In this document: positions 11,386-54,023 of the stretch, piece after piece
Numbering within the stretch: position 1 is the stretch's first letter
Layout of the letters: every line of letters begins with the position of its first letter
Assembly: GCF_003991155.1 (NCBI RefSeq)
Contig: NZ_CP031293.1
Reading direction: 5' to 3' (one strand)
Length of the DNA stretch: 64,000 bases
Source of the DNA: Escherichia coli
Lineage (GTDB): Bacteria; Pseudomonadota; Gammaproteobacteria; Enterobacterales; Enterobacteriaceae
Position numbers and translations under genes: made by a program
Notes under the pieces: model-generated
Seen by the model: the letters and a program-made list of their open reading frames with translations, nothing else
The model's database searches: none
Told to the model about the DNA's origin: nothing

Positions 11386-11391
11386 GTAGTT

Positions 11392-13968: not shown

Positions 13969-13970
13969 TG

Positions 13971-14576: not shown

Positions 14577-14588
14577 TCAGAGGGGCCG

Positions 14589-14903: not shown

Positions 14904-14904
14904 A

Positions 14905-14941: not shown

Positions 14942-15047
14942 ACCATTCAATTTTTTCTCTAAATCACATTAAAAGATTCTTCACCTTCGCTGCTTCAGAA
15001 TACATTTCAACGATAACGAAGTGAGCGGTAATTAAGGTACAGCCTAT

Positions 15048-17635: not shown

Positions 17636-17685
17636 GTTATTCGGGGCTACGGCCCCGAACTTTGCAAAATAAATAAGGACACAAA

Positions 17686-18003: not shown

Positions 18004-18192
18004 GATAGACGCCCTTACCGTCGATGACTTTAGCAACTGGCTGGATGAAGCCAGCGCCCAAATAAAAATCGAATATGACTCGCAGACCTGATGTCTGCGA
18101 GTTTCCCAAGCCCGTCAGGTTTATTTCTTCCCTGCCCCTTTTTTTAGAAAAATAACCAGCGGGCCATTATCAATATTTAAAGAGAAACAATT

Positions 18193-21521: not shown

Positions 21522-21730
21522 TGCGATACCTTGAACATATCACCACCGATGGCGAACGCTGGGATAACCTGGCATGGCATTACTACGGTGATGCGCTGGC
21601 TTATGAACGCATAATCGCCGCCAATCCACATGTAGCCATTTACCCGGTACTGCCTTCCGGTATTCAGCTCATTATTCCGGTCATTTCCGTTAATAAAACC
21701 TTATCGGAGATCCCACCATGGCTGAGATGA
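21521..21730 (+). CDS. Tail protein X-like (small LysM-like tail protein)
   Basis: 69-aa ORF with AANP...LP.G pattern as in P2 gpX; located between U-like and D-like genes as in R-type pyocin clusters. Confidence 0.7.
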   Translation: MRYLEHITTDGERWDNLAWHYYGDALAYERIIAANPHVAIYPVLPSGIQLIIPVISVNKTLSEIPPWLR

Positions 21731-22758
21731 GCGTAACTGGTGGCGTCTTTGCCACACTCACGCCCATTTTTACCCTCTGGTATGGGCATAAAGATATCAC
21801 TTATGACATCACACCCTATGTCACCAGCATCAGTTACCACGACAGCATCAAAAACGAGTCGGATACCATCGCAATTACACTGGATGACACAGATGGACGC
21901 TGGATAAAAGAGTGGTATCCCGGCAAAGGCGATACGCTGGCGCTGCATATAGGTTATCAGGGGGAAAAGCTGCTCGATTGTGGCCAGTATATTATTGATA
22001 AAATTGATATTTCAGCGCCACCTTCCACGGTAAATATTGATGGCATCGCCACTTCCGTCAATCAGGCGCTGCGCACCCGTAACAGCCAGGGCTTTGAAGA
22101 AACGACGCTTTCGGCGATCGCCAGCCGTATTGCCCAAACGCACGGTCTGAAACTGGTGGGCAAAATCGAGTCGCTCACCATCGACCGGGTAACGCAGTAT
22201 GGTGAAACCGATGTCGGATTTCTCAAACGTCTGGCCAGTGAATATGGTTATGCCGTAAAAGTGACGACAAAAGAGCTGATTTTTTCACATTTACCCACGC
22301 TGCGCTGCCTGACGCCTGTGAAAAAGATCGATCGCAAAGAGGTTTCTCATTTTACCTTCAAAGACACCATTAACCGGATCTACAAGAACGCCACCGTACA
22401 GCATCAAAATAGTAAGAAAAAAGAACTGGTTATCTACACTCACAACAGCCAGCAAAAACCATCTGTCCGTGGAGTCGGCACTAGTGCCGACACGCTAAAA
22501 CTGAACAGTCGGGCGACGGACGTTGGCGCAGCACAGGCAAAGGCTAACGCTGCACTCGACAGCCACAACGAATATCAGCAAACCGGAACGCTCACAATGA
22601 TGGGCTGCCCGGAACTGACGGCGGGCAATAAAATTGAACTGACCGATTTTGGCGTGATTTCCGGTCAGTGGCTGATTGATAAATCTACTCACAGTTTTGT
22701 GCGCAGCGGCTATACCACTGAAATCGACGTGTCACGCGGGCCAGCGACCAGCCAGTAA
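21718..22758 (+). CDS. Phage late control D-like / Mu gpP-like tail (baseplate hub) protein
   Basis: 346-aa ORF in the conserved U-X-D position. Confidence 0.75.
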   Translation: MAEMSVTGGVFATLTPIFTLWYGHKDITYDITPYVTSISYHDSIKNESDTIAITLDDTDGRWIKEWYPGKGDTLALHIGYQGEKLLDCGQYIIDKIDISAPPSTVNIDGIATSVNQALRTRNSQGFEETTLSAIASRIAQTHGLKLVGKIESLTIDRVTQYGETDVGFLKRLASEYGYAVKVTTKELIFSHLPTLRCLTPVKKIDRKEVSHFTFKDTINRIYKNATVQHQNSKKKELVIYTHNSQQKPSVRGVGTSADTLKLNSRATDVGAAQAKANAALDSHNEYQQTGTLTMMGCPELTAGNKIELTDFGVISGQWLIDKSTHSFVRSGYTTEIDVSRGPATSQ

Positions 22759-22767
22759 GGAGGAAAT

Positions 22768-23469
22768 ATGAAAGGAGTAACCCGTCAAACGGGGATTATC
22801 AGCGATATTGACGAAACCAGTGTTCGGGTACGGGTCACTCTACCAGAGTGTGACAATCTGAAGAGCAACTGGCTTGCGGTACTTCAACGCAATTCCCAGG
22901 ACAATAAAGACTACTGGCTACCGGATATGGGCGAGCAAGTGGAAGTTCTGCTGGACGATAACGGTGAAGATGGCGTGGTGCTGGGTGCCGTTTATTCTAC
23001 GGTTGACACCGCGCCTGTAGCCTCGCGCGACAAACGTTACGTCCAGTTTTCTGATGGCGCAGCGTTTGAATATGACCGCAGCACGCACCAGCTGACGATT
23101 AACGGCGGTATCGAGAAAATCGTGATTGAGGTTATCGACAGCACCCGCCTGACATCGCCCAACGTTGAGATTAAAGCCCAACACGTCACCGTGACTTCCG
23201 ATACCGTCGATGTTAAAGCGACCGATGTCAGCATCGACGCCACTAAGGTCGAGGTTAAAGCAGCAGCAGTGACGGTAGATGCGCCCATGAGCACCTTTAC
23301 TGGCAACGTCACGGTAATGAAAAAACTCACCTGGCTTGGCGGGATGGCAGGAAGTGGAGGCATCGGTAACGCAGCCACGATAACCGGCAATGTCAACGTG
23401 ATCGGCAACGTTCAGGCCAGCGGCGCATTGCAGGACAGCGGTGGCAACTCCAACCACCATTCACACTGA
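22768..23469 (+). CDS. Baseplate assembly protein V-like (central spike)
   Basis: 233-aa ORF; N-terminal OB-fold-like region and C-terminal repetitive beta region (VTVTSDTVDVKATDVSIDATKVEVKAAAVTVDA) typical of gpV spikes. Confidence 0.8.
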   Translation: MKGVTRQTGIISDIDETSVRVRVTLPECDNLKSNWLAVLQRNSQDNKDYWLPDMGEQVEVLLDDNGEDGVVLGAVYSTVDTAPVASRDKRYVQFSDGAAFEYDRSTHQLTINGGIEKIVIEVIDSTRLTSPNVEIKAQHVTVTSDTVDVKATDVSIDATKVEVKAAAVTVDAPMSTFTGNVTVMKKLTWLGGMAGSGGIGNAATITGNVNVIGNVQASGALQDSGGNSNHHSH

Positions 23470-23472
23470 CTT

Positions 23473-23505
23473 TTAACCCGCCTGATGGCGGGTTTTCTCT
23501 TTTTA
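23473..23505 (+). terminator. Hairpin (AACCCGCCtgatGGCGGGTT) plus T-rich tract after the spike gene; possible partial intra-operon terminator
   Basis: Perfect 8-bp stem followed by TTCTCTTTTT. Confidence 0.5.
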
Positions 23506-23567
23506 ATCAATCAGTTTTCTAAATCGCTTTAATATCTCCACAGCCCGTTCAGGGCGAAAATACCCTC

Positions 23568-23927
23568 ATGAACACAAAAACACGCCCCTCAACGCTGCAC
23601 TGGCAACCGGCCTTGCAGCGGCCTGAAGAATACGTCTGCGGGCTGGATGATATTCACCAGGCAATACACATCATTCTGCGTACACCGCGCGGCAGTGATC
23701 CCCACAGACCGCTGTTTGGCAGCAACTTGTGGCACTACATCGATTACCCCATCGAGCGGGCTATCCCGCATGTGGTACGGGAGTCGGTGGAAGCCATCCG
23801 CCAGTGGGAACCGCGCTGTCGGTTGCTGAAGGTGACACCAGTAATCGACGGCGAACATCTGACGTTACGTGTGCAATGGCGCGCCGCTGACGGCGTTATC
23901 AACTCAACGGAGGTGTTATGGCGATAG
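23568..23927 (+). CDS. Baseplate wedge protein gpW / gp25-like
   Basis: 119-aa ORF; PRGSDPHRPLFGSNLWHYIDYP resembles the GPW_gp25 family core. Confidence 0.75.
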   Translation: MNTKTRPSTLHWQPALQRPEEYVCGLDDIHQAIHIILRTPRGSDPHRPLFGSNLWHYIDYPIERAIPHVVRESVEAIRQWEPRCRLLKVTPVIDGEHLTLRVQWRAADGVINSTEVLWR

Positions 23928-25033
23928 CCGAACCCAATTTTATTGACCGCGATCCTGCGCAAATTACCAGTGAGATGATTGCGCAATACGAAGATGCCAG
24001 TGGTAAAAAACTCTATCCGGCACAGGCTGAGCGGTTGCTCATCGACCTGTTTGCCTATCGTGAAAACCTTGTACGCATCGCCATTCAGGAAGCGGCGAAA
24101 CAAAACCTGGTCGCGTATTCCCGCGCGCCAATGCTGGATTATTTAGGGGAGTTGGTGGGAGTTCACCGTTTGCCTGCGCAGCCTGCAAAAACGACGTTGC
24201 AGTTTTCGGTCGTTAGTGCGTATCCCGGCAATATCCTGATTCCCCAGGGGACGCGGGCCAGTGCCTCTGATAGCGTGATGTTCGCCACCGATGAAGATGT
24301 TCTGCTTCCGGCCAGGAGTTTGCATATCGCCGTTCCTGCCACCAGCCTCGCAGCAGGTGAACAGGGTAACGGCTGGCAGCCTGCACAAATTAGCGCACTG
24401 GTCGACAGGATTGGTCATTATGACATCAACGTAACCAACCTGACTGCGTCAACGGGCGGCTGCGGTGAAGAGAGCGATGACGCATTGCGCCAGCGTATCC
24501 AACTGGCACCAGAAAGCTTTAGTAATGCGGGCAGCTATGGTGCCTACCGCTTTCATACGCTTTCTGTTAGCCAGTCGATTATTGACGTTGCAGTACTGGG
24601 GCCGGACGAGGGATTGCCAGAAGGCTGCGTGGAGATCTACCCGCTAACCCTGAATGGTCTACCCGGCACGGAGTTGCTGGCGCAGATTGAACAAGAAGTC
24701 AGCAAGGAGAAAAAACGACCGCTGACCGACAAAGTGAGTGCGAAATGCGCTCTTCGAGTGCCGTATGAGATCCGTGCGCAGCTAATGCTGTTTACCACCG
24801 CCGATCAGGAGACAACGCTGGCTGCGGCGCGTAAAGCGATTAGCCTCTGGACGCAACAGCGGCAGAAACATCTGGGGCAGGACATTGTGCCAAACCAGAT
24901 AATCAAAGTGTTACAGGTCGATGGCGTCTATGACGTTGCGCTGAATATGCCTACAAAACGTATTTTGCAGGCGCATGAATGGGCGGAATGCACTGCAATA
25001 GACGTCACGATTGCCGGAGTCAGCGATGGATAA
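23918..25033 (+). CDS. Baseplate protein J-like
   Basis: 371-aa ORF after gpW with GGAGG RBS; W-J-I order. Confidence 0.8.
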   Translation: MAIAEPNFIDRDPAQITSEMIAQYEDASGKKLYPAQAERLLIDLFAYRENLVRIAIQEAAKQNLVAYSRAPMLDYLGELVGVHRLPAQPAKTTLQFSVVSAYPGNILIPQGTRASASDSVMFATDEDVLLPARSLHIAVPATSLAAGEQGNGWQPAQISALVDRIGHYDINVTNLTASTGGCGEESDDALRQRIQLAPESFSNAGSYGAYRFHTLSVSQSIIDVAVLGPDEGLPEGCVEIYPLTLNGLPGTELLAQIEQEVSKEKKRPLTDKVSAKCALRVPYEIRAQLMLFTTADQETTLAAARKAISLWTQQRQKHLGQDIVPNQIIKVLQVDGVYDVALNMPTKRILQAHEWAECTAIDVTIAGVSDG

Positions 25034-25742
25034 ATTGCTGCCACCGCCGCCGCTTGCCAGCGATGAGCGTTTTTCGATTCTGGCAAACATCGCCGCCGAG
25101 CGTTTTGCCCAACTCGATCTGACGGCGTTGATGGTTTATCTGGTCGACCTGGTTGATGCTTCGGCATTACCAGCCCTTGCAGAACAATTTCACGTTCAGG
25201 GGCTGGAAGGTTGGTTATTTACCACCGATGAGCGGGAGAAACGCGAGTTAATTAAACAAGCCATTGAACTGCATAAATATAAAGGAACAATTTGGGCGGT
25301 ACGGCGAGTGCTGGAAATACTTTCCTTACCCGGAACTATTTCAGAATGGTTTGAATATGGGGGAAGGGCTTATTTTTTTAAGGTAAATATTACACTAGAG
25401 GAAAAAGGATTAAATGAAGATGAATTCAATGCACTTATCACATTAATTCATGAATATAAAAATGTTCGTTCAAAGCTGGAAAGCATTGTTATTTGGCTTA
25501 TTAATCGAAGCCCAATACCAGTTATTGGCAGCGCCATGCAAGGAGGGGAAGTCATTACAGTATTGCCTCCTGTTGCAGAAAGCCTCAGCCAGTCATCAGG
25601 AATATTTTTAGCGACGGGTTATTGTGTGGAGGAATATATCCAACTACTACCTTATCAACCCGATCGCCTTACACAATCCCAACCGATGAAGGTCGGCACA
25701 GGATACTGGAGCACCGAAATTATGTCTGTATATCCGGAGTAA
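25026..25742 (+). CDS. Tail protein I-like (baseplate)
   Basis: About 238-aa ORF from ATG 25026 overlapping J stop; position before tail fiber. Confidence 0.7.
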
Positions 25743-25744
25743 TA

Positions 25745-27325
25745 ATGGCAAGTGAATTTTTTACAATATTAACTGCTGCAGGCAAAGCCAAAATTGCCTC
25801 AGCACTGGCCGAGCAAAAACAGATCCGTCTGCAAACTATGGTAGTTGGCGACGGTAATGGTAAATATATCGAACCGACAGAAAGTCAGACCAAAGTAGTC
25901 CATGAGGTCTGGCGTGGTCAGCTCAATACATTAAAAATTGCGCCAGATAATCCGGCCTGGGTTATCGCAGAAGCGATTATTCCCGAACAAGTCGGAGGCT
26001 GGTATGTACGCGAAGTTGGGTTACTGGATACCGACGGCACGCTGGTCGCTATTGGTAAATTCCCGGAAACCTATAAGCCACGATTACCTGCGGGGGCCAG
26101 TAAGCAAATCGTTATACGCGCGGTCATGGAAGTCACCAATGCAGACGCGGTGACGCTTTTGATCGACCCTTCAGTCGTTGTGGCAACCAGGGAATATGTC
26201 GATGACGCGTTGAAAACACATCAGCAATCACGAAATCATCCTGATGCGACGCTGACACAAAAAGGTTTTACGCAGCTCAGTAATGCAACTAATAGCGATG
26301 ATGAGACTAAAGCAGCCACGCCAAAAGCGGTAAAAACGGCATATGACCTGGCAAATAGCAAAGCCGCAACCAGTCATACTCATGCCTGGAATCAGATTAC
26401 TGGTATCCCTGACGGTACACTGACGCAGAAAGGAGTCGTTAAACTTAACAACACAACAAATAGCACCAGTACAACGGAAGCTGCAACGCCAAGTGCGGTT
26501 AAAGCAGCGATGGACAAGGCTATTGCTGCGGCGCCGTCCAGCCATACCCATGCCTGGGGGCAAATAACAGGTATCCCCGACGGTACGCTGACACAAAAAG
26601 GGGTCGTGAAACTTAATAATGCGACCAACAGCACCAGTACGACGGAAGCTGCGACGCCGAACGCGGTTAAGGCAGCGATGGATAAGGCTATTGCTGCGGA
26701 AAGCTGTCCTGTTGGGATGCCTATTCCCTGGCCATCTGATTCTGTACCTTCAGGCTACGCTCTGATGACAGGTCAGACATTTAATAAAACCTCCTATCCC
26801 AAACTGGCAATTGCATATCCATCTGGTGTTATTCCTGATATGCGCGGATGGATAATTAAAGGAAAACCATCCAGTGGGCGCGCTATATTATCTACTGAAC
26901 TGGATGGAGTTAAATCACATAACCATACGGGCAGTATTTCGAGTACTGATTTAGGGACGAAAACCACACCCCTCACAGACTTGGGGACTAAAACTGCATC
27001 ATCATTTAACCATGGAAATAAAACAACAAGTTCATCTGGCTCAGGCTCGGCAACTGCAACAGTAAGAACAGGGACATCTTCACCAGAGGGCCAAGGCGAC
27101 TGGACATCATATGGCCCTGGTACCGGATCATCTTTGGCAATTAATGTTCCATCACACGTTCATAGTGTTACAATTGGTTCCCATTCGCACACTGTTGCGC
27201 TCGGCACCCATTCGCATTCAATTGCACTTGGTTCCCATAACCACTCCCTAACCATTAATAATACCGGCAGCACCGAAAACACCGTCAAAAATATCGCATT
27301 CAACTATATTGTGAGGCTAGCATGA
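25745..27325 (+). CDS. Tail fiber protein (P2 gpH-like N-terminal anchor, repeat region, His-x-His tip)
   Basis: N-terminus [23 protein letters not shown]...HEVWRGQLN...[12 protein letters not shown] resembles the conserved P2 H N-terminal domain; three tandem ~45-aa repeats; C-terminal [22 protein letters not shown]. Confidence 0.85.
26244..26700 (+). repeat. Intragenic tandem repeats (three ~135-bp units) within the tail fiber gene
   Basis: Repeated [12 protein letters not shown](A/T)[12 protein letters not shown](S/N)[12 protein letters not shown]...HTHAW(N/G)QITGIPDG seen at DNA and protein level. Confidence 0.7.
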
Positions 27326-28029
27326 ATACTTTTACCTTTTCTGATGAAGCTCAAATACTAACTGTATATAATTTTTCACAAGACTCCCAAGAATATATCG
27401 GTGAGTCTGATGCATACATTGCACCTAATACAGGCTTGCCAAATTATTGCACATTAATTTCACCTCCCGAAAAGGCTCCTGGTTTTACTCCAGTGTGGGA
27501 GAATGAAACATGGAGACTTATTGAAGATCATCGAGGCCAAACTGTTTATAACAAAGTTGATGGTAGCCAGCTTATTATTCAAGAATTGGGCCAATTACCT
27601 GAAAATGTAACAGTCATTTCCCCGACAGGTTCTTTTGAACGTTGGGATGGTGAAAAATGGCAACCATCTATAACCGATGCTAAAGAGGCGAAATACTCTG
27701 CAATCAAAAATCAACGCGATGCCATCACAACCGATTACATCATCATCAACAACCATCACTTCCACAGTGATACAAATAGCCGTATCCAACAGCTTTCACT
27801 CACAAAAATGGGAGCGGAGAAAAAAATTCCGCCAGGGTTAATGTGGAAAACTAAAAATAATGGTCTGATTGAGTTAACCAACGAAATCGCTGCCCAGTTT
27901 GAATCGGTCACCATGGATCACGATATGCGCTTGTTCGCAAACGCCCAGCGTCATATCGCGGCGGTGGAAGCACTGGACGATATTCAGGCGGTGCTCGACT
28001 ACGATTATTCAACAGGCTGGCAACCATGA
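27322..28029 (+). CDS. Tail fiber assembly (chaperone) protein
   Basis: 235-aa ORF overlapping the fiber stop (ATGA); lower GC than surrounding genes, typical of host-range modules. Confidence 0.75.
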
Positions 28030-28481
28030 GTAAAACCACTGTCTGGCTCGCTTGTTATAAGGGCCGAACAGAGCACCGTGGTATTGCCCGACTGGCTGAC
28101 TGGCTTACCCGTAAAATCACACGCGGTAGTTATTCCCACTGTGAATTAGCCGTTAAGCATGGTGAAAAGAGATACCTTTGTTACTCCGCATCACTGCGCG
28201 ATCGCGGTGTACGCGGAAAAATAATGCCATTGCCAGCGGATAAGTGGGATATGCTGCCGCTCCAGGCCAGCCTTCAGGATGTGGAAACTTTTTTCCGTAA
28301 ACATGATGGCAAAAAATATGACTGGCGCGGAGCATTAGGAATTATTATCGGTAATAAAGAACAGCGCGATCGCCTGTTTTGCAGTGAATTTTGTGCTGAA
28401 TTTCTGCAACTGAAGGAAAGCTGGCGCTATTCTCCAAACCACTTGTACGCTTTAGTCAGTAGCTGGCAATATCAGCCGTAA
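28026..28481 (+). CDS. Hypothetical protein (151 aa), Cys/His-containing, translationally coupled to tail fiber assembly gene
   Basis: Intact ORF with ATGA overlap to upstream gene; no confident family assignment. Confidence 0.5.
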   Translation: MSKTTVWLACYKGRTEHRGIARLADWLTRKITRGSYSHCELAVKHGEKRYLCYSASLRDRGVRGKIMPLPADKWDMLPLQASLQDVETFFRKHDGKKYDWRGALGIIIGNKEQRDRLFCSEFCAEFLQLKESWRYSPNHLYALVSSWQYQP

Positions 28482-28495
28482 AATAACGCCGGGCA

Positions 28496-29296
28496 TCACG
28501 CCCGGCGCATTACCGTCTGGTACAGTAAACTATCCAGTTCCTTAACGTCCCCTTCTCTGCTATCCGGTAACACTGGTGGAGTTTCCCCGCGCGCCAGCTC
28601 CGCGCGAATAAACGCATGTAACAAAGGACGACGCGGACCATATTCCGCCTCCCCCGCTCGCTGTTTACGCTCCAGCAGTTCGTCTATTTCTACGCGTAAC
28701 GGCGCATCAAGCTCGCTTCCCGCCAGTAACTCGGAAAAGCGCATTGGCGGCACGCCTTTTCCCGCTTCAACCCAGCGTACGGCCAGCAGCGGACGCAGCA
28801 CGTAAAAGTATTTTTTCAGTCGAACTTCATCGCCCTGCAAATAGCCGCGGAAGTTTTTCTGCGCCATCGAATAGTAATGCCAGCGTGCACGCAACGAAGA
28901 AAACCACATTGGGACCATTGCCTTAAGCGCCGTTATCGTTTCTTCATCTTGTTGATAGACCACCGGAGAATCCAGCCATTCTATCAGCGTCGGATTCGCG
29001 CCTTTCAATAATCCCAGCGCCTTACGCCACTCCCAACCGGAAACATCTAATTCGTCGTCGATGGGCAGCTCGATAACATCGCGCGGTGACTCTACACGCA
29101 GATACCATTCCAGCGGATGGACATACAAAAACCGTACATCGTAGTCGCTATCGGGCGAGGCAAATCCCCAGCCGCGGCTGCCTGATTCGCAGGCGTACAG
29201 CACTTTCACGCCATAGAGACGTTCTATTTCTTTTAACTGCTGCGATACCCGTTCGCGCATCGCAGCACTGACTCCATTTAATGGCATGTTACTCAC
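28496..29296 (-). CDS. Pol-beta-superfamily nucleotidyltransferase-domain protein
   Basis: 266-aa ORF with N-terminal motif ESGSRGWGFASPDSDYDVRF (GS-x9-12-D-x-D nucleotidyltransferase signature); C-terminal ~200 aa unassigned. Confidence 0.7.
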   Translation of the reverse strand: MSNMPLNGVSAAMRERVSQQLKEIERLYGVKVLYACESGSRGWGFASPDSDYDVRFLYVHPLEWYLRVESPRDVIELPIDDELDVSGWEWRKALGLLKGANPTLIEWLDSPVVYQQDEETITALKAMVPMWFSSLRARWHYYSMAQKNFRGYLQGDEVRLKKYFYVLRPLLAVRWVEAGKGVPPMRFSELLAGSELDAPLRVEIDELLERKQRAGEAEYGPRRPLLHAFIRAELARGETPPVLPDSREGDVKELDSLLYQTVMRRA

Positions 29297-30420
29297 CCTT
29301 TGATATTAACCAACCCATGCAGAACCTGATCCAGACCGCCAAATACAGAGATGTTATCGATCCGCTCAGCCACTCTCTCCAGCGTTTCCAGTTCTTTTAA
29401 GCGTAACGCCACCGGGTTGTTTTCCATGACTTTAGCGGTATTGAGTAACGAACGTGTCGCTGCCGTTTCTTCACGCCGACGAATCACATTCGCCTGCGCA
29501 GATTTCTCTGCCTCAACCAGCTGCGCGAGGATATTTTTCATATCACCAGGCAGGACGATATCTTTCACCCCTAATGAGGCAATCTCCATACCAAATGGCA
29601 ACATACGCGATTTAACCTGTTCGCTGACAACGTCATCAATGACCTGTTTATCTTCCAGCAACTCATCCAGCGTACGCGTACCTACCGCTTCACGCAGTGC
29701 AAATTGCAATTCCCGATACAAATGATCAATCGGCTTCGTTAACTGACTAAATGCCAATAACACGTCGCTGTAGCGCCAGTTGGCGGCGAGGTTAATCCGC
29801 AGATTGACCTTATCTTTCGTTAAGATTTCTTGCCCGCTGACTTCCAGTACCTGCAAGCGGGTGTCAACCACTTCAGCTTCAACCAGATGGTTAATTTTCC
29901 AGTACGCAGTCAGCCCCGGCGGTAACAGCGCCTGCGTTTCACCATCGATTTTCAGTACACCTACGTGCCAGGCCGGAACCTGCACCGTCAGTATCGCATC
30001 GCGGCCTTTAACTGCCCCTTTGCGCCGTGGCTGCAATACCGCATTCATCACCTCCGTTTGAACCTGGACTTGCTGCGTATTCATCCGCACCAGCGTCAAA
30101 TCATCCTCTACACGCCAGTACAAACGACGCGTTGATGGCGGCAGGATCTCCAGCAAAATACCGTCCATATACAACGCCCCGGCTTCAGTCTCCGACAAGT
30201 CGGCCACCACGCAATATCTTTCCACCCAATCAGGCTGAAAGCGGCGCAAATAATCCGCCAGCACGTCGGGAACTTCGCTGCCATCGAACGTAATCAGCAA
30301 GACTTCTGGCGTATTTAACCAGGGTAAAAGATGCTCGCCTGCATGCAGCACTTTGTAGTAATCGCCATTTCTGGAGAGTAATGCCAGCTGATCTTTTCTT
30401 ACGCTTATTTTCTTAATCAT
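29293..30420 (-). CDS. SPFH (band-7/stomatin-prohibitin-flotillin) domain protein with ~170-aa N-terminal extension
   Basis: 375-aa ORF; C-terminal half shows SPFH-like region followed by coiled coil (EAEKSAQANVIRRREETAATR...); 4-nt overlap with downstream NTase gene; AGGAA RBS. Confidence 0.75.
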   Translation of the reverse strand: MIKKISVRKDQLALLSRNGDYYKVLHAGEHLLPWLNTPEVLLITFDGSEVPDVLADYLRRFQPDWVERYCVVADLSETEAGALYMDGILLEILPPSTRRLYWRVEDDLTLVRMNTQQVQVQTEVMNAVLQPRRKGAVKGRDAILTVQVPAWHVGVLKIDGETQALLPPGLTAYWKINHLVEAEVVDTRLQVLEVSGQEILTKDKVNLRINLAANWRYSDVLLAFSQLTKPIDHLYRELQFALREAVGTRTLDELLEDKQVIDDVVSEQVKSRMLPFGMEIASLGVKDIVLPGDMKNILAQLVEAEKSAQANVIRRREETAATRSLLNTAKVMENNPVALRLKELETLERVAERIDNISVFGGLDQVLHGLVNIKG

Positions 30421-32441: not shown

Positions 32442-33389
32442 ATGGAAAACAGTGACGATATCCGTTTGATTGTGAAGATTGCCCAACTCTATTACGAACA
32501 GGATATGACGCAGGCGCAAATCGCGTGCGAACTGGGTATTTACCGCACCACCATCAGCCGCTTGCTTAAACGAGGCCGCGATCAGGGAATTGTCACCATC
32601 GCCATCAACTATGACTACAACGAAAATCTCTGGCTGGAGCAGCAACTGAAGCAAAAGTTTGGCCTGAAAGACGTTGTGGTGGTGTCGGGAAATGATGAGG
32701 ATGAAGAGACTCAACTGGCGATGATGGGGTTACACGGCGCGCAACTGCTGGATCGCTTGCTGGAGCCTGGCGATATTGTCGGTTTTTCCTGGGGTCGCGC
32801 GGTGAGCGCACTGGTTGAAAACTTGCCGCAGGCGGGGCAATCGCGGCAGTTAATCTGCATACCAATTATTGGCGGCCCGTCCGGTAAACTCGAAAGCCGC
32901 TATCATGTAAACACATTAACCTACAGCGCGGCAGCGAAGTTGAAAGGGGAATCGCATCTCGCGGATTTTCCGGCTCTACTGGATAACCCCTTAATTCGTA
33001 ATGGGATCATGCAGTCTCAGCACTTTAAAACCATCTCTGCCTACTGGGATAATCTGGATGTCGCCCTGGTGGGAATTGGCTCACCGGCCATTCGCGACGG
33101 CGCTAACTGGCATGCGTTTTATGGTGGTGAAGAGAGTGACGACCTGAATGCCCGCCAGGTTGCTGGCGATATTTGCTCGCGCTTTTTTGATATTCACGGC
33201 GCAATGGTTGAAACGAATATGAGCGAAAAAACACTCTCTATCGAAATGAATAAATTAAAGCAGGCACGATATTCCATTGGCATTGCCATGAGTGAAGAAA
33301 AATACAGCGGAATTGTTGGTGCACTGCGTGGAAAATATATTAATTGTCTGGTAACGAATAGCAGCACAGCTGAACTATTACTGAAATAA
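32442..33389 (+). CDS. sorC: SorC-family transcriptional regulator of the L-sorbose operon
   Basis: Translation from internal start MENSDDIRLIVKIAQLYYEQDMTQAQIACELGIYRTTISRLLKRG (HTH) followed by sugar-binding domain; first gene of sor cluster. Confidence 0.85.
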   Translation: MENSDDIRLIVKIAQLYYEQDMTQAQIACELGIYRTTISRLLKRGRDQGIVTIAINYDYNENLWLEQQLKQKFGLKDVVVVSGNDEDEETQLAMMGLHGAQLLDRLLEPGDIVGFSWGRAVSALVENLPQAGQSRQLICIPIIGGPSGKLESRYHVNTLTYSAAAKLKGESHLADFPALLDNPLIRNGIMQSQHFKTISAYWDNLDVALVGIGSPAIRDGANWHAFYGGEESDDLNARQVAGDICSRFFDIHGAMVETNMSEKTLSIEMNKLKQARYSIGIAMSEEKYSGIVGALRGKYINCLVTNSSTAELLLK

Positions 33390-33458
33390 AAATCTTCCCG
33401 ATGTTTACCGTAATAAAAATTACGGCGGGTCCCTATTATCTAAAATCAGGAGTCTGTT

Positions 33459-34265
33459 ATGCAAACGTGGTTAAATTTGCAGAATAAAATCATTATTGTC
33501 ACCGGTGGCGCATCCGGCATTGGTCTGGCGATTGTGGATGAATTATTAGCACAAGGCGCGAATGTACAGATGGTCGATATTCACGGTGGCGATGGACAAT
33601 ATGAAGGTCATAAAGGCTATCAGTTTTGGCCGACCGATATTTCCAGCGCCAAAGAGGTAAATCATACGGTAGCAGAAATTATCCAGCGTTTTGGTCGCAT
33701 CGACGGTCTGGTCAATAACGCCGGGGTCAATTTTCCGCGTCTGCTGGTCGATGAGAAAGCGCCTGCCGGGCAGTATGAACTCAACGAAGCGGCATTCGAA
33801 AAAATGGTCAATATCAACCAGAAAGGCGTTTTTCTGATGTCGCAGGCGGTGGCGCGACAGATGGTCAAACAACATGATGGCGTGATTGTGAATGTTTCCT
33901 CAGAAAGTGGGCTGGAAGGCTCAGAAGGCCAAAGCTGTTACGCCGCGACCAAAGCCGCGCTCAATAGCTTCACGCGCTCCTGGTCGAAAGAGCTGGGTAA
34001 GCACGGTATCCGTGTGGTCGGTATCGCGCCGGGGATTCTGGAAAAAACAGGACTGCGCACGCCGGAATATGAAGAAGCGCTGGCTTGGACGCGCAATATC
34101 ACCGTCGAGCAGCTGCGTGAAGGCTATACCAAAAACGCCATTCCTATTGGGCGCGCCGGAAGATTAGCAGAAGTGGCTGATTTTGTTTGTTATCTGCTGT
34201 CTGAACGCGCCAGCTATATCACCGGAGTAACCACTAACATTGCGGGCGGCAAAACGCGCGGCTAA
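33459..34265 (+). CDS. sorD: Short-chain dehydrogenase (D-glucitol-6-phosphate dehydrogenase SorD-like)
   Basis: 268-aa SDR with TGGASGIG Rossmann motif; operon position. Confidence 0.8.
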   Translation: MQTWLNLQNKIIIVTGGASGIGLAIVDELLAQGANVQMVDIHGGDGQYEGHKGYQFWPTDISSAKEVNHTVAEIIQRFGRIDGLVNNAGVNFPRLLVDEKAPAGQYELNEAAFEKMVNINQKGVFLMSQAVARQMVKQHDGVIVNVSSESGLEGSEGQSCYAATKAALNSFTRSWSKELGKHGIRVVGIAPGILEKTGLRTPEYEEALAWTRNITVEQLREGYTKNAIPIGRAGRLAEVADFVCYLLSERASYITGVTTNIAGGKTRG

Positions 34266-34274
34266 GGAGGCTTT

Positions 34275-34682
34275 ATGGTCAATGCCATTTTTTGCGCCCA
34301 CGGCAAATTAGCCTGCGCCATGCTGGAATCGGTTCAGATGGTGTACGGCGATGCCAGGGTCGAGGCAGTTGAATTTGTGCCCGGCGAGAACGCCGGAGAC
34401 ATTGTGGCAAAGCTGGAGAAGTTAGTGAGCATTCACAATCATGACGAGTGGCTAATCGCCGTGGATTTACAGTGCGGCAGCCCGTGGAATGCGGCAGCGG
34501 TGCTTGCGATGCGCAATCCTCGTCTGCGGGTAATCAGCGGCCTTTCACTGCCGCTGGCGCTCGAACTGGTTGATAACCAGGACAGCATGAATGTTGATGA
34601 ACTGTGTGAACACCTGACGCAAATCGCAAAGCAATCCTGCGTCGTCTGGAGACAGGTGGCAACGGCAGAGGAGGATTTCTGA
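34275..34682 (+). CDS. sorF: PTS sorbose-family EIIA component
   Basis: 135-aa ORF with mannose-family EIIA N-terminus (AIFCAHGKLA); operon position. Confidence 0.8.
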   Translation: MVNAIFCAHGKLACAMLESVQMVYGDARVEAVEFVPGENAGDIVAKLEKLVSIHNHDEWLIAVDLQCGSPWNAAAVLAMRNPRLRVISGLSLPLALELVDNQDSMNVDELCEHLTQIAKQSCVVWRQVATAEEDF

Positions 34683-35176
34683 TGAACATTACGCTCGCCC
34701 GCATTGATGACCGCCTGATCCACGGTCAGGTCACTACCGTCTGGTCGAAAGTGGCTAACGCCCAGCGCATTATTATCTGCAATGACGAAGTTTATAACGA
34801 TGAAGTTCGCCGGACATTATTGCGTCAGGCTGCGCCACCGGGAATGAAGGTTAACGTGGTCAATATTGAAAAAGCCGTCGCGGTTTATCACAACCCGCAA
34901 TATCAGGACGAAACCGTTTTTTATCTTTTCACTCGCCCACAGGATGCCTTAGCGATGGTTCGCCAGGGGGTAAAAATAGGTACCCTGAATATTGGCGGTA
35001 TGGCCTGGCGTCCTGGTAAAAAACAGTTAACCAAAGCAGTTTCATTAGATGACGATGATATTAACGCATTTCATGAGTTAAATAATCTTGGCGTCATACT
35101 GGATTTACGCGTCGTAGCGTCAGATCCCTCAATCAATATTATCGACAAAATAAACGAACAGTTAATCGCAAATTAA
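34682..35176 (+). CDS. sorB: PTS sorbose-family EIIB component
   Basis: 164-aa ORF MNITLARIDDRLIHGQVTTVWSK (mannose-family EIIB motif). Confidence 0.85.
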   Translation: MNITLARIDDRLIHGQVTTVWSKVANAQRIIICNDEVYNDEVRRTLLRQAAPPGMKVNVVNIEKAVAVYHNPQYQDETVFYLFTRPQDALAMVRQGVKIGTLNIGGMAWRPGKKQLTKAVSLDDDDINAFHELNNLGVILDLRVVASDPSINIIDKINEQLIAN

Positions 35177-35241
35177 ATAATAGCGCCTGTGTACATATGC
35201 TTTAACAGGCAGGGATGACGACACTTAAAAGGTGACAAATC

Positions 35242-36039
35242 ATGGAAATAAGTACCCTACAAATTATTGCTATATTTCTTTTTTCCTGTATTGCCGGAAT
35301 GGGCAGCGTGCTGGATGAATTTCAGACTCATCGTCCGTTAATTGCCTGTACGGTGATTGGTTTAATTCTCGGTGATTTAAAAACCGGAATTATGCTCGGT
35401 GGTACGCTGGAATTGATAGCTCTCGGCTGGATGAACGTCGGCGCGGCGCAATCTCCGGATTCTGCACTCGCCAGCATAATCTCCGCCATTCTGGTTATCG
35501 TTGGTCAGCAAAGCATCGCCACCGGAATCGCCATCGCGTTGCCTGTGGCTGCGGCAGGCCAGGTGCTAACGGTGTTTGCCCGTACCATCACCGTAGTGTT
35601 CCAGCACGCGGCGGATAAAGCAGCGGAAGAAGCACGGTTTCGCACTCTCGATATTCTGCATGTCTCCGCGCTTGGCGTGCAGGCACTGCGCGTTGCTATT
35701 CCGGCACTGATTGTCTCGCTGTTCGTCAGCGCCGATATGGTGAGCAATATGCTGAGCGCCATTCCCGAATTTGTGACCCGTGGACTGCAGATTGCTGGCG
35801 GTTTTATCGTGGTGGTCGGTTACGCCATGGTGCTTCGCATGATGGGCGTGAAATATTTGATGCCTTTCTTTTTCCTCGGTTTCCTCGCAGGTGGCTACCT
35901 CGATCTCAGTCTGCTGGCGTTCGGTGGCGTCGGCGTGATCATGGCCCTGCTCTACATCCAGTTAAATCCACAGTGGCGTAAAGCTGAACCACATCCCCAG
36001 ACCACCACTATCACCGCCCTTGACCAACTTGATGATTAA
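35242..36039 (+). CDS. sorA: PTS sorbose-family EIIC component
   Basis: 265-aa polytopic membrane ORF. Confidence 0.85.
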   Translation: MEISTLQIIAIFLFSCIAGMGSVLDEFQTHRPLIACTVIGLILGDLKTGIMLGGTLELIALGWMNVGAAQSPDSALASIISAILVIVGQQSIATGIAIALPVAAAGQVLTVFARTITVVFQHAADKAAEEARFRTLDILHVSALGVQALRVAIPALIVSLFVSADMVSNMLSAIPEFVTRGLQIAGGFIVVVGYAMVLRMMGVKYLMPFFFLGFLAGGYLDLSLLAFGGVGVIMALLYIQLNPQWRKAEPHPQTTTITALDQLDD

Positions 36040-36049
36040 CGGAGCCATC

Positions 36050-36874
36050 ATGGAACAGAGAAAAATTACACGCAGCGATCTGGTGAGCATGTTTCTGCGC
36101 TCCAACCTGCAACAGGCATCCTTTAACTTTGAACGTATTCACGGGCTGGGTTTTTGCTACGACATGATCCCCGCCATCAAACGACTTTACCCATTAAAAG
36201 AGGATCAGGTTGCGGCGCTCAGGCGACACCTGGTGTTCTTCAATACCACGCCAGCCGTATGTGGCCCGGTCATCGGCGTCACTGCCGCCATGGAAGAGGC
36301 GCGAGCCAACGGCGCGGAAATTGATGACGGTACCATTAACGGCATCAAAGTAGGTCTGATGGGACCATTGGCAGGAGTTGGCGATCCACTGGTCTGGGGA
36401 ACGCTGCGCCCGATTACCGCCGCGCTCGGCGCATCTCTGGCACTTTCGGGCAACATTCTCGGCCCCCTGCTGTTCTTCTTTATTTTCAATGCAGTACGTC
36501 TGGCAATGAAATGGTATGGGCTGCAACTGGGCTTTCGTAAAGGGGTGAATATCGTCAGCGATATGGGCGGTAATTTGCTGCAAAAACTGACCGAAGGCGC
36601 GTCGATTCTCGGGCTGTTTGTAATGGGCGTACTGGTGACCAAATGGACATCGATCAACGTGCCGTTAGTGGTTTCACAAACGCCTGCCGCCGATGGTGCC
36701 ACCGTCACTATGACCGTACAGAACATTCTCGACCAGCTTTGCCCTGGATTGCTGGCGCTCGGTTTGACGCTGCTGATGGTACGTCTGCTCAACAAAAAAA
36801 TTAACCCGGTATGGCTGATTTTCGCCCTGTTTGGTTTAGGGATTATCGGTAATGCGCTGGGCTTCCTGTCCTGA
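36050..36874 (+). CDS. sorM: PTS sorbose-family EIID component
   Basis: Membrane ORF from ATG 36050 (GGAG RBS), 274 aa; typical EIID. Confidence 0.85.
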   Translation: MEQRKITRSDLVSMFLRSNLQQASFNFERIHGLGFCYDMIPAIKRLYPLKEDQVAALRRHLVFFNTTPAVCGPVIGVTAAMEEARANGAEIDDGTINGIKVGLMGPLAGVGDPLVWGTLRPITAALGASLALSGNILGPLLFFFIFNAVRLAMKWYGLQLGFRKGVNIVSDMGGNLLQKLTEGASILGLFVMGVLVTKWTSINVPLVVSQTPAADGATVTMTVQNILDQLCPGLLALGLTLLMVRLLNKKINPVWLIFALFGLGIIGNALGFLS

Positions 36875-36925
36875 TTCTTCGCCCCGGCGCAACCGTCGGG
36901 GCCATCGTTCAACATGAGGTGGTTT

Positions 36926-38155
36926 ATGAAAACAACAGCTCTGCGTCTTTATGGTAAACGTGATTTACGCCTGGAAACCTTTGACCTTCCTGAAATGCAG
37001 GAGGATGAAATCCTCGCAACGGTGGTCACTGACAGCCTGTGCCTCTCTTCCTGGAAAGAGGCCAATCTGGGGGAAAACCATAAAAAAGTACCCGACGATG
37101 TGGCGACCAATCCCATCATCATCGGCCACGAATTTTGCGGCGATATTCTGGCCGTGGGTAAAAAGTGGCAGCACAAATTCCAGCCGGGTCAGCGTTATGT
37201 GATTCAGGCCAACCTGCAACTCCCCGACCGCCCGGACTGCCCCGGCTACTCCTTCCCGTGGGTAGGCGGCGAAGCGACGCATGTGGTTATTCCCAACGAG
37301 GTCATGGAACAAGATTGCCTGCTGGCATACGACGGCGAAACCTATTTTGAAGGCTCGCTGGTTGAACCGCTTTCCTGCGTGATTGGCGCGTTCAACGCCA
37401 ACTATCATCTTCAGGAAGGTAGTTATAACCACACGATGGGGATTCGCCCGCAAGGGCGCACGCTGATCCTCGGCGGCACCGGACCAATGGGACTGTTGGC
37501 GATTGATTATGCGCTACATGGACCCGTTAACCCTTCGCTGCTCGTCATTACCGATACCGACAACGACAAATTGAGTTATGCGCGCAAGCACTATCCATCA
37601 GAACCGCAAACACTGATTCATTATCTCAATGCCACCGATGCAGCATTTGATACGTTAATGGCGCTGAGTGGCGGTCACGGCTTCGATGATATTTTCGTCT
37701 TTGTGCCTAATGAAGGACTGGTGACTCTCGCCTCTTCCTTGCTGGCGACAGATGGTTGCCTGAATTTCTTCGCCGGACCGCAGGATAAGCACTTCAGCGC
37801 GCCAATTAATTTCTACGATGTGCATTATGCATTTACCCACTACGTAGGCACGTCAGGCGGCAATACCGACGACATGCGCGCAGCGGTCAAATTGATTGAA
37901 GAGAAAAAAGTGCAGGCCGCAAAAGTGGTAACACATATTCTTGGGCTGAATGCCGCGGGCGAAACCACGCTTGAATTGCCTGCCGTCGGCGGCGGGAAAA
38001 AACTGGTGTATACCGGGAAATATCTGCCGCTGACATCACTCACGCAGATTCAGGATGAAGAACTGGCGGCGATTCTGGCGCGTCATCAGGGAGTCTGGTC
38101 CGGCGAGGCGGAGCAGTACCTGCTCGCCCATGCAGAGGCGATTTCCCATGATTAA
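36926..38155 (+). CDS. sorE: Zinc-type alcohol dehydrogenase family, L-sorbose-1-phosphate reductase-like
   Basis: 409-aa ORF from MKTTALRLYGKRDLRLETFDLPE...; MDR/ADH family features; operon position. Confidence 0.8.
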   Translation: MKTTALRLYGKRDLRLETFDLPEMQEDEILATVVTDSLCLSSWKEANLGENHKKVPDDVATNPIIIGHEFCGDILAVGKKWQHKFQPGQRYVIQANLQLPDRPDCPGYSFPWVGGEATHVVIPNEVMEQDCLLAYDGETYFEGSLVEPLSCVIGAFNANYHLQEGSYNHTMGIRPQGRTLILGGTGPMGLLAIDYALHGPVNPSLLVITDTDNDKLSYARKHYPSEPQTLIHYLNATDAAFDTLMALSGGHGFDDIFVFVPNEGLVTLASSLLATDGCLNFFAGPQDKHFSAPINFYDVHYAFTHYVGTSGGNTDDMRAAVKLIEEKKVQAAKVVTHILGLNAAGETTLELPAVGGGKKLVYTGKYLPLTSLTQIQDEELAAILARHQGVWSGEAEQYLLAHAEAISHD

Positions 38156-38960
38156 TCGCGATACTCAACTCTGCATGTCGCTGGCCGGCTGCCCCGGTAA
38201 CTTCGGCACGCGTTTTCACAATTATCTTTATGAAAAGCTGGGGCTGAATTTCATCTATAAAGCGTTCACCACCCAGGATATTGCAGCGGCGGTGAAAGGG
38301 GTTCGCGCGTTGGGTATTCGCGGTTGCGCTGTGTCGATGCCGTTTAAAGAAAGCTGCATGCCTTTTCTCGACGCGATCGATCCGTCGGCGAAGGTCATTG
38401 ATTCCGTGAATACCATCGTGAATGACGACGGCAGGCTGACCGGGTTTAACACCGACTATATCGCGGTGAAAAGCCTGATTACCCACCACCAGCTCAATAC
38501 CACCACGCGAGTGATGATTCGCGGCAGTGGCGGCATGGGCAAAGCGGTGATTGCCGCCTTTCGCGACGCGGGGTTTACGGATGTTATCATTGCCGCCCGC
38601 AACCGCGAGAGCGGCCCGGCGCTGGCGAAGCAGTATGGGTTTCAGTGGCAACCGCAGCCGGAAGGCATCGCCTGCGACATTCTGGTCAACGTGACGCCCG
38701 TTGGCATGAGCGGCGGTAAAGAGAGCCATGAGCTGGCCTTCAGCGAAGCGATGGTCTCAACGGCAAGCGTCGTTTTTGATGTCGTGGCCTTGCCGCCGGA
38801 AACGCCGCTCATTCGCCTGGCGCAACGGCTTGATAAGCAGACGATTAGCGGTGCGGAGGTGATTGCTTTACAGGCCGTCGAGCAGTTCGCAATGTATACC
38901 GGCGTACGGCCTGATGCGCAACTGATTGCTGAGGCGGCACAATTTGCACGAGAAGGATAA
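38148..38960 (+). CDS. Shikimate 5-dehydrogenase-like protein (AroE/YdiB family paralog)
   Basis: About 270-aa ORF from MINRDTQLCMSLAG...; motifs VSMPFKES and NTDY match the AroE family (VTVPFKEE, NTDG); start overlaps sorE stop by 8 nt. Confidence 0.75.
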   Translation: MINRDTQLCMSLAGCPGNFGTRFHNYLYEKLGLNFIYKAFTTQDIAAAVKGVRALGIRGCAVSMPFKESCMPFLDAIDPSAKVIDSVNTIVNDDGRLTGFNTDYIAVKSLITHHQLNTTTRVMIRGSGGMGKAVIAAFRDAGFTDVIIAARNRESGPALAKQYGFQWQPQPEGIACDILVNVTPVGMSGGKESHELAFSEAMVSTASVVFDVVALPPETPLIRLAQRLDKQTISGAEVIALQAVEQFAMYTGVRPDAQLIAEAAQFAREG

Positions 38961-41663: not shown

Positions 41664-42113
41664 TCACACTTTCCCCTGTCGTTTACACCAGATAATCGTT
41701 GTCACTTTTGTGACCTCTGAGAAGATAAACAACGAAATATTTAAGACCAGATCCTGTGAATGAAAATAATTAAGTAACAACGGTATTACGGAGATTGAAC
41801 AGCTTACGGTAGCAAAACGCATAAACTCCTGAATCGCCAAAAAAGAGAAACTAAATAATTCTTGTCTTAAAAAACATTGCGCAGAAAAGAATAAAGAGAA
41901 CAATAATACTATTTGTAGCGTAACAGTGGCGACTGCATAAGCGTAAAAACCGCCTTCAACACCGATATCCTTAAGTAAAGAAAGTGAATGAACGATATCG
42001 GAATAAAAAGGGATACGACCATTACCAAGCGAGTAGAACAAATATGTGGCTATCGCGATAACATCCATGACACCCCAAAAAAGAAGAATGTATTTTTTAT
42101 ATTGACGTTGCAT
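41664..42113 (-). CDS. Hypothetical small membrane protein (about 4 predicted TM helices), AT-rich
   Basis: 149-aa ORF in a ~30% GC islet; hydrophobic segments; no family recognised. Confidence 0.5.
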   Translation of the reverse strand: MQRQYKKYILLFWGVMDVIAIATYLFYSLGNGRIPFYSDIVHSLSLLKDIGVEGGFYAYAVATVTLQIVLLFSLFFSAQCFLRQELFSFSFLAIQEFMRFATVSCSISVIPLLLNYFHSQDLVLNISLFIFSEVTKVTTIIWCKRQGKV

Positions 42114-42155
42114 AAAGTAAATCCTTTTTACGAAAACAAATATTACCAGGAATTA

Positions 42156-42482
42156 TTATAATTGCGGGCGTTTTTGGATTAACACTCCACCCGTATTTTT
42201 AAAAATCCTGTCAGCCATACCTTCACTAAACAAGACATCGATACGCCCTTTACTTTTATCGTGATACAGAATACTGCATGAGATACACCTTATACCCTCT
42301 TTGGATTTACGAAAATCTAACCAAAAACGACCATCATAAAAGACCCACTCCACACCTGTTTTTATATTAATTATCCAATCATTATAACCTGTTGGTTTTT
42401 TTCCTAATAGTTCAGTAACTTCGGACTCTGAACATCCTTCGAAAGCAAAAAAATCTATTTCATCGATTTTTATCATGTTCAA
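42156..42482 (-). CDS. Hypothetical small soluble protein (108 aa), AT-rich
   Basis: 108-aa ORF immediately upstream (same strand) of the membrane ORF; atypical codon usage. Confidence 0.5.
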   Translation of the reverse strand: MNMIKIDEIDFFAFEGCSESEVTELLGKKPTGYNDWIINIKTGVEWVFYDGRFWLDFRKSKEGIRCISCSILYHDKSKGRIDVLFSEGMADRIFKNTGGVLIQKRPQL

Positions 42483-46219: not shown

Positions 46220-46418
46220 ACTTGCTCCCGACACGCTCAACCCAGATTTAATAAAAATTCAACAAACCATACTGGCATAAACGCATCTGTGGTAAAAGCA
46301 ACCACTACCCAACATGAGATTTGTTCAACATTAACTCATCGGATCAGTTCAGCAACTATTGCATTAGCTAACAATAAAAATGAAAATGATTTCCACGATA
46401 CAGAAAAAGGAGACTGTC

Positions 46419-47243
46419 ATGGTCGCACCCATTCCCGCGAAACGCGGCAGAAAACCCGCCGTTGCCACCGCACCAGCGACTGGGCAGGTTCAGTCTTTAA
46501 CGCGTGGCCTGAAATTACTGGAGTGGATTGCCGAATCCAATGGCAGTGTGGCACTCACGGAGCTGGCGCAACAAGCTGGGTTACCCAATTCCACGACCCA
46601 CCGCCTGCTAACCACGATGCAACAGCAGGGTTTCGTGCGTCAGGTTGGCGAACTGGGACACTGGGCAATCGGCGCACATGCCTTTATGGTCGGCAGCAGC
46701 TTTCTCCAGAGCCGTAATTTGTTAGCAATTGTTCACCCTATCCTGCGCAATCTAATGGAAGAGTCTGGCGAAACGGTCAATATGGCGGTGCTTGATCAAA
46801 GCGATCATGAAGCGATTATTATCGACCAGGTACAGTGTACCCACCTGATGCGAATGTCCGCGCCTATCGGCGGTAAATTACCTATGCACGCTTCCGGTGC
46901 GGGTAAAGCCTTTTTAGCCCAACTGAGCGAAGAACAGGTGACGAAGCTGCTGCACCGCAAAGGGTTACATGCCTATACCCACGCAACGCTGGTGTCTCCT
47001 GTGCATTTAAAAGAAGATCTCGCCCAAACGCGCAAACGGGGTTATTCATTTGACGATGAGGAACATGCGCTGGGGCTACGTTGCCTTGCAGCGTGTATTT
47101 TCGATGAGCACCGTGAACCGTTTGCCGCAATTTCTATTTCCGGACCGATTTCACGTATTACCGATGACCGCGTGACCGAGTTTGGCGCGATGGTGATTAA
47201 AGCGGCGAAGGAAGTGACGCTGGCGTACGGTGGAATGCGCTGA
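46419..47243 (+). CDS. iclR: Glyoxylate shunt repressor IclR
   Basis: Translation from MVAPIPAKRGRKPAVATAPATGQVQSLTRGLKLLEWIAES (274 aa). Confidence 0.95.
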   Translation: MVAPIPAKRGRKPAVATAPATGQVQSLTRGLKLLEWIAESNGSVALTELAQQAGLPNSTTHRLLTTMQQQGFVRQVGELGHWAIGAHAFMVGSSFLQSRNLLAIVHPILRNLMEESGETVNMAVLDQSDHEAIIIDQVQCTHLMRMSAPIGGKLPMHASGAGKAFLAQLSEEQVTKLLHRKGLHAYTHATLVSPVHLKEDLAQTRKRGYSFDDEEHALGLRCLAACIFDEHREPFAAISISGPISRITDDRVTEFGAMVIKAAKEVTLAYGGMR

Positions 47244-47259
47244 CTTTTTCGCCTCTGAT

Positions 47260-48984
<1,725 letters not shown>

Positions 48985-53457: not shown

Positions 53458-53901
53458 ATGGTTATTAGTATTCGCCGCTCACGGCATGAGGAAGGGGAGG
53501 AACTCGTTGCGATTTGGTGTCGTTCTGTCGATGCCACTCACGATTTTTTATCAGCAGAGTATCGGGCCGAGCTGGAGGAGCTAGTTCGTTCCTTCTTGCC
53601 GGAAGCGCCGTTGTGGGTCGCGGTTAATGAGCGGGATCGGCTGGTTGGGTTTATGTTGTTAAGTGGGCAGCATATGGATGCGCTTTTTGTCGATCCTGAT
53701 GCGCGCGGTTGTGGCGTGGGCCGGATGCTGGTGGAACATGCGCTCTCGATGGCACCGGAACTGACAACCAATGTTAATGAGCAAAATAAGCAGGCTGTTG
53801 GGTTCTATAAGAAGATGGGTTTTAAGGTTACGGGACGCTCTGAGGTGGACGATTTGGGGAAACCGTATCCATTGCTGAATCTGGCATATGTGGGGGAATA
53901 A
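53458..53901 (+). CDS. yjaB: GNAT-family N-acetyltransferase YjaB
   Basis: 147-aa ORF with GNAT motif (RGCGVGRMLVEHAL...GFYKKMGF). Confidence 0.9.
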   Translation: MVISIRRSRHEEGEELVAIWCRSVDATHDFLSAEYRAELEELVRSFLPEAPLWVAVNERDRLVGFMLLSGQHMDALFVDPDARGCGVGRMLVEHALSMAPELTTNVNEQNKQAVGFYKKMGFKVTGRSEVDDLGKPYPLLNLAYVGE

Positions 53902-53981
53902 GCTGCCCCCTATCGTGCTATCGTGCCTGCGTAAGCTGGAGCAGACGCGCCAGCGTCGCAGCCGGCCGTTTTCTGCACCAG

Positions 53982-54012
53982 CGCAAAAAGGCCATCCTGA
54001 CGGATGGCCTTC
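53982..54012 (-). terminator. rrnE operon terminator hairpin
   Basis: On minus strand AGGCCATCCGTCAGGATGGCC followed by TTTTTGCGC, immediately 3' of 5S rRNA. Confidence 0.6.
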
Positions 54013-54023
54013 TGCTAAATTTG

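Follow-up and report, generated by a model that had tools for sequence, protein, structure and literature searches.

In Escherichia coli K-12 MG1655 the genes aceB, aceA, aceK, arpA, iclR and metH follow one another in that order, with arpA (2187 bp) lying on the opposite strand between aceK and iclR (b4016–b4018) and overlapping aceK tail to tail by 32 bp. The K-12 ArpA protein is 728 amino acids long and, by Pfam, consists of an N-terminal ShET2 domain followed by ankyrin repeats; PGAP names the product EspL4 or a type III effector of the ShET2/EspL2 family. The absence of arpA is a marker of the Clermont quadruplex, as an earlier sequence-only reading of the locus described here had noted, and the scheme and its primers are given in PMC4322292 (sequences in Table 1) and PMC10145502. 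A strain that lacks arpA and yjaA and carries chuA is assigned to phylogroup F, and a positive TspE4.C2 reaction would make it B2 (PMC10145502). Phylogroups F and G share the same quadruplex pattern and are separated by an allele-specific PCR on ybgD (EzClermont primer table, PMC7656184). In BL21 and B strains arpA is disrupted and is not expressed (PMC5435950).

The DNA analysed here, referred to as the window, is a stretch of 64,000 nucleotides from E. coli contig NZ_CP031293.1 (assembly GCF_003991155.1). Within it iclR and aceK are convergent; metH is the neighbour of iclR, and aceA, aceB, metA and yjaB lie beyond aceK. The iclR coding sequence (46419..47243, plus strand) specifies 274 amino acids from the annotated start, with HTH_IclR and IclR_C domains by Pfam; mechanically the open reading frame extends over 46380..47243 from an in-frame ATG further upstream, and the start at 46419 is the one annotated in a near-identical genome. 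The gene ends in ...GGAATGCGC TGA, its last codons being GGA ATG CGC TGA, with the stop codon at 47241-47243. The aceK coding sequence (47260..48984, minus strand), defined by the list of open reading frames, annotation and Pfam, specifies 574 amino acids and ends in RFSVRFV*; the TTA at 47260-47262 is its TAA stop codon on the minus strand. Both domains of an isocitrate dehydrogenase kinase/phosphatase are present at approximately full profile length, PF20423 (AceK_regulatory) at residues 10-306 and PF06315 (AceK_kinase) at residues 310-564. Direct readout of the sequence confirmed that the two stop codons are 16 bp apart, exactly at the positions first given; the spacer between them (47244..47259) is the 16-nt sequence CTTTTTCGCCTCTGAT.

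A consensus scan found one weak terminator-like element, a hairpin followed by a T-run, inside the end of iclR (47221..47252, plus strand), and this was the only sign in the scan of a bidirectional terminator or other structure at the 16-bp junction. The hairpin and the T-run up to 47250 are common to K-12, whose homology with the window starts again there, where the T-run ends. Predicted folding of the junction was no better than that of shuffled sequence on either strand (z = -0.04 and -0.82). A structured bidirectional terminator at the junction was dropped as a candidate, given folding that matches the shuffles and the weakness of the hairpin.

When the window was aligned with the corresponding K-12 locus (L001) by blastn, two blocks of homology were recovered, one on the aceK side (K-12 5686-12311, window 53896-47270) and one on the iclR side (K-12 14798-19508, window 47250-42540), and the flanking genes were 96.8-96.9% identical on both sides of the junction. 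Between the blocks, the blastn breakpoints and anchored alignments leave 19 bp that only the arpA-less allele has (47251..47269), whose counterpart in K-12 is a segment of 2486 bp (12312-14797). In the anchored alignments homology stops after ...TTTAGCGT on the aceK side, where the breakpoint is fixed only to about plus or minus 12 nt, and restarts at GAAAAAGTCAGCG on the iclR side. The K-12 segment comprises arpA, the region upstream of arpA and the final codons of aceK, and has a GC content of 36.9% as against 53-54% for aceK and iclR. The stop codon of the K-12 arpA reading frame falls within sequence that is common to the arpA-less allele, and the last arpA codons are antisense to the part of aceK that encodes ...SVR. 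The IclR C-terminus (...TLAYGGMR*) is identical in the two genomes, and the aceK products part company at their extreme C-termini: K-12 AceK has 578 residues and ends in RFSVRYGEMLF, and the proteins differ from residue 572 on (572-574 in the window). This comparison of the MG1655 locus bears out what the sequence-only reading had stated, that K-12 has arpA between iclR and aceK and that the gene is missing here. The alignment of the aceK 3′ ends that it had proposed as a check likewise found an AceK C-terminus unlike that of K-12, and the prospect that K-12 might share the short junction did not materialize, since K-12 carries arpA there and has a different junction.

Nothing resembling arpA was found elsewhere in the window. 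A tblastn search of the 64 kb with K-12 ArpA gave a best E value of 1.7, a blastn search with the 2486-bp segment gave a best E value of 0.47; in place of an open reading frame with ShET2 and ankyrin-repeat domains, the locus holds only the 16 nt between aceK and iclR. Among 5426 complete E. coli genomes, 1316 have a contiguous iclR-aceK junction and 4109 have arpA. The two counts add up to 5425, which is the number of genomes with any match at all, and we therefore infer, on the basis of counts, that the two states partition E. coli and that arpA has not been relocated in genomes with the junction. An intact arpA elsewhere, which would have undone the earlier claim, was thus encountered neither in the window nor, as judged from these matching counts, in the junction-type genomes among the 5426. 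Among the arpA-positive genomes the gene is full length in about half (at least 80% query coverage in 2004 of 4109), and the others, which include BL21 (NZ_CP170101.1), match over 72% of the query in two pieces, a pattern that indicates an internal deletion. Shortened arpA in about half of the arpA-positive genomes is consistent with the disruption reported for BL21 (PMC5435950).

The junction of the window is a single shared allele rather than a private deletion. The 16-nt spacer is identical in UTI89, SMS-3-5, strain 2/0 and Ecol_881; strain SC418 has a 15-nt spacer and the same AceK tail as the window, and RFSVRFV* is common to UTI89 (B2), SMS-3-5 (F), strain 2/0, Ecol_881 and SC418. In the two arpA-negative reference strains UTI89 and SMS-3-5 the spacer, the AceK length of 574 residues and the tail match those of the window, as does the convergent order metH / iclR / aceK / aceA. 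The flanking genes differ by point differences only, at 98.5% identity over 6 kb for SMS-3-5 and 95.4% over a 1.1-kb junction query for UTI89. The 16-bp gap is the ordinary, native arpA-less form of the locus, carried by roughly a quarter of sequenced E. coli, and as a typing marker the junction is already textbook knowledge, with nothing new at the locus.

To place the two forms of the locus relative to each other, aceK neighbourhoods were surveyed in 80 species-representative genomes, 76 of which contain both aceK and iclR at the locus. The two genes are convergent neighbours in all 76, and none of these enterobacterial loci has ArpA-like sequence between them. Within Escherichia this sample offers one true outgroup, E. 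albertii, and does not extend to E. fergusonii or the cryptic clades. E. albertii NBRC 107761 (L007) has no arpA and, like the window, encodes an AceK of 574 residues ending in RFSVRFV*; its spacer of 15-16 bp, ATCAGTGGCGAAAAG, is homologous to that of the window, with a 1-nt indel in the A-run. The two sequences are collinear across the junction over 1201 bp, with 88.9% nucleotide identity and one gap; this is an ordinary level of divergence between species, and so the junction was not recently imported. SC418 was also considered as a cryptic-clade outgroup and rejected: its junction region is 92.4% identical to that of the window, but its metH is 98.9% identical, so that the strain is an ordinary E. 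coli in which a patch of iclR-aceK has diverged.

Variation at the end of aceK is not peculiar to E. coli. In the 76 species surveyed, AceK lengths fall between 573 and 598 residues, the variation being confined to the tail that follows ...RQRF..R[FY], and the commonest enterobacterial form is a 580-residue protein with the tail R[FY]GELKQAG, whose gene overlaps the iclR stop codon by 4 nt. Because the tail lies outside the catalytic domain model, which ends at residue 564, and is hypervariable among enterobacteria, it is probably unconstrained, and the exchange of RFV for RYGEMLF would be without functional consequence. The AceK tails of Salmonella, Citrobacter and Kluyvera look as if they were translated REP-like palindromic elements.

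The interval between aceK and iclR is an insertion hotspot across the Enterobacteriaceae, several genera having 0.3-1.7 kb of unrelated cargo there. A conserved open reading frame of about 137 codons fills the interval in Klebsiella, Raoultella, Kosakonia and Phytobacter; Superficieibacter and Pseudocitrobacter have small paired reading frames that are putatively toxin-antitoxin-like; and gaps of 1.1-1.7 kb with membrane-protein reading frames are found in Kosakonia cowanii and Enterobacter sp. BIGb0383.

The relatives of ArpA offer few clues to the source of the gene. Plasmid-borne members of the ShET2/EspL2 family, such as Shigella OspD3, are about 27% identical to it and align only to about residue 712 of 728, short of the codons that overlap YGEMLF in K-12, so that these alignments do not show those codons to be native arpA sequence. 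Among 5.8 billion proteins, relatives at E<=1e-20 fell into 18 clusters; all of those with a named source are from E. coli, and no donor outside this species was found at that threshold. The most divergent full-length ArpA has 734 residues, is 88% identical to the K-12 protein (92.8% at the nucleotide level) and is encoded at the same junction, within flanks that are about 98% identical to those of K-12. The presence of a divergent allele at the same junction suggests that arpA was inserted once, and some time ago. As a separate observation, arpA evolves faster than its neighbours, the divergent allele lying inside ordinary E. coli flanks. Inspection by eye of the ends of the K-12 insert found neither target-site duplications nor terminal inverted repeats.

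We consider it likely that arpA was gained and that the arpA-less junction is ancestral, because E. albertii has the same arrangement, the 76 species surveyed lack arpA, and arpA is an AT-rich gene of an effector family. A gain of arpA fits rooted phylogenies of E. coli, where the arpA-positive groups diverge later than B2, F and G. With good but not complete confidence, the RFSVRFV* state can be taken as the older one, from which a single insertion of arpA made the K-12-type allele, at a site of recurrent insertion in the Enterobacteriaceae. By this scheme a 2.49-kb AT-rich segment with arpA would have entered the locus of K-12-type strains precisely where aceK ends, replacing about 19 bp that held the last three aceK codons, the stop codon and most of the spacer. 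AceK would thereby have gained a new six-residue tail, YGEMLF, in place of FV, and this tail would overlap the 3′ end of arpA. The window would then carry the older allele, and the AceK tail of K-12 would be the derived one. The description of the AceK end in the window as a variant is accordingly to be revised: it does fit a different junction, as first proposed, but rather than being a deletion scar it is an ending shared with E. albertii, and probably the older of the two. The literature covered, which comprised typing papers and a BL21 paper but not the original Clermont 2013 paper, does not say explicitly if arpA was a gain or a loss.

The most serious alternative reverses the direction of change, with arpA present in the ancestor of E. 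coli and deleted once in the common ancestor of B2, F and G, so that the short junction and the shorter AceK would be the scar of the deletion. Some features of the locus are in its favour. The RYGEM of the K-12 tail is similar to R[FY]GELKQAG, the tail found across the family, and at the nucleotide level the K-12 sequence (L001 12308-12333) matches a Buttiauxella locus (L072) at 12 of 15 positions; unless this likeness is accidental, the allele with arpA preserves a feature that predates the RFV* tail. Moreover, arpA is not a very recent arrival, as its divergent alleles are 92.8% identical in nucleotide sequence within flanks of about 98%. A deletion within E. coli would not, however, recreate the sequence of E. 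albertii, with which the window shares the AceK protein, its tail, a homologous spacer and collinearity across the junction. The lack of arpA at this position in the other enterobacterial species surveyed, together with its AT-rich composition and membership of an effector family, also speaks against a loss, which we regard as unlikely. If arpA was instead gained, as we prefer, the typing marker most likely reflects the acquisition of a foreign gene in the arpA-positive lineages, not a deletion in those that lack it.

In silico typing with the Clermont primers, which the sequence-only reading had suggested, gave negative results for arpA and yjaA in the window and a positive result for chuA in a proxy genome. 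The primers performed as expected on K-12, where AceK.f and ArpA1.r delimit exactly 400 bp and the yjaA primers 211 bp. The window has an AceK.f site (47639..47658, minus strand) with 2 mismatches and no ArpA1.r site within 3 mismatches, because that primer spans the breakpoint, and the 400-bp amplicon is therefore impossible. The yjaA gene, which in K-12 lies four genes from aceK, gave no tblastn match and no primer sites in the window, and hence no 211-bp amplicon; the interval from the rrnE 5S rRNA gene to yjaB (53897..54017) is 121 bp long as compared with 519 bp in K-12, and the K-12 sequence with yjaA (L001 5167-5685) has no counterpart in the window by blastn, in agreement with the annotation of the near-identical genome. 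The yjaA-less arrangement is itself common, O157 and many other genomes matching it contiguously. For chuA, which lies outside the window, the nearest genome was used as a proxy: E. coli 2016C-3878 (NZ_CP029747.1) differs from the window at 5 of 64,000 positions, its annotation places chuA between dctR/chuS and chuT, and exact sites for the two primers define a product of 288 bp. No TspE4.C2 primer sites were found in the window or in two fetched stretches of 50 kb, which represent part of the genome.

Over the 6 kb around the junction the window is 100% identical to at least 33 genomes among the matches listed, including MRY15-117, MRY15-131 and CREC-544, which are ST457 (PMC5430464, PMC9860340). 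A strain of ST457 was typed as phylogroup F in 2022 (PMC9860340), and SMS-3-5 is F both by phylogeny and according to both in silico typers (PMC7656184). The missing arpA and yjaA, the chuA of the close relative and the match to ST457 point to F rather than B2, and the strain is most likely of phylogroup F and ST457-like, judging from sequence identity and the published typing of ST457. Placement in an arpA-negative lineage, as originally suggested, thus agrees with the missing gene and with a junction type shared with B2 and F strains; of the two phylogroups that had been named, F fits, and B2 is disfavoured by the absence of yjaA and the 100% match to ST457 genomes. ST457 has been described as an emerging, drug-resistant, extraintestinal-pathogenic lineage of wildlife and food animals (PMC9860340). 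Taken as a whole, a native arpA-less allele in the window, an arpA insertion in K-12 and a phylogroup F background together form an explanation that we hold to be highly likely, and the best one overall.

Assignment to phylogroup G is quite improbable, even though G has the same pattern as F (arpA and TspE4.C2 negative, chuA positive, yjaA negative) and the quadruplex needs the allele-specific PCR on ybgD to tell them apart. ST117 is the main lineage of G. The window is 100% identical over 6 kb to published genomes of ST457, from which a strain was typed as F (PMC9860340), and the ST117 strain in PMC5430464 represents another sequence type. Phylogroup B2 would account equally for the missing arpA and for the junction, which is identical in the B2 strain UTI89, and a chuA-positive, yjaA-negative, TspE4.C2-positive pattern is also scored as B2 (PMC10145502), but it is very improbable here: over the junction region, identity reaches only 94.4-95.4% with UTI89 and with strain 2/0, which is similar to it, as against 98.5% (6 kb) with SMS-3-5 and 100% with ST457 genomes, the type assigned to F in PMC9860340, and yjaA is absent from the window. 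An artefact of assembly and a deletion private to this isolate have next to no probability as explanations of the junction, both being already refuted by its recurrence in E. albertii and in 1316 complete genomes that were assembled independently.

Several other features of the window were recorded. Within aceK itself, nucleotides ~1125-1500 (window ~47485-47860) carry 20-24 differences per 150 nt relative to both SMS-3-5 and K-12, and the first ~900 nt of the gene are almost identical to SMS-3-5; the divergent patch looks like a short recombination tract that may have been imported into the ST457-type allele. Between metH and yjbB the interval is 1010 bp in the window and 189 bp in K-12, and two hypothetical genes of 106 and 149 codons are found there on the minus strand (41664-42476). 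Between pepE and rluF, which we take to be adjacent in K-12, positions 32442-38960 hold a sorbose-type PTS operon (sorE, IIA-IID, an SDR oxidoreductase and a regulator) and a shikimate dehydrogenase gene. The genes yjbD and lysC, presumably also adjacent in K-12, are separated in the window by about 18 kb (12796-30420) that include a slipin-family gene, a nucleotidyltransferase gene and a phage tail module. The module is annotated with sheath, tube, tape measure (with an internal stop), baseplate, tail fibre, holin, transglycosylase and Mor activator genes and with no head or integrase genes, and on this gene annotation it is either what remains of a prophage, with the tail genes only, or a tailocin-like cluster.
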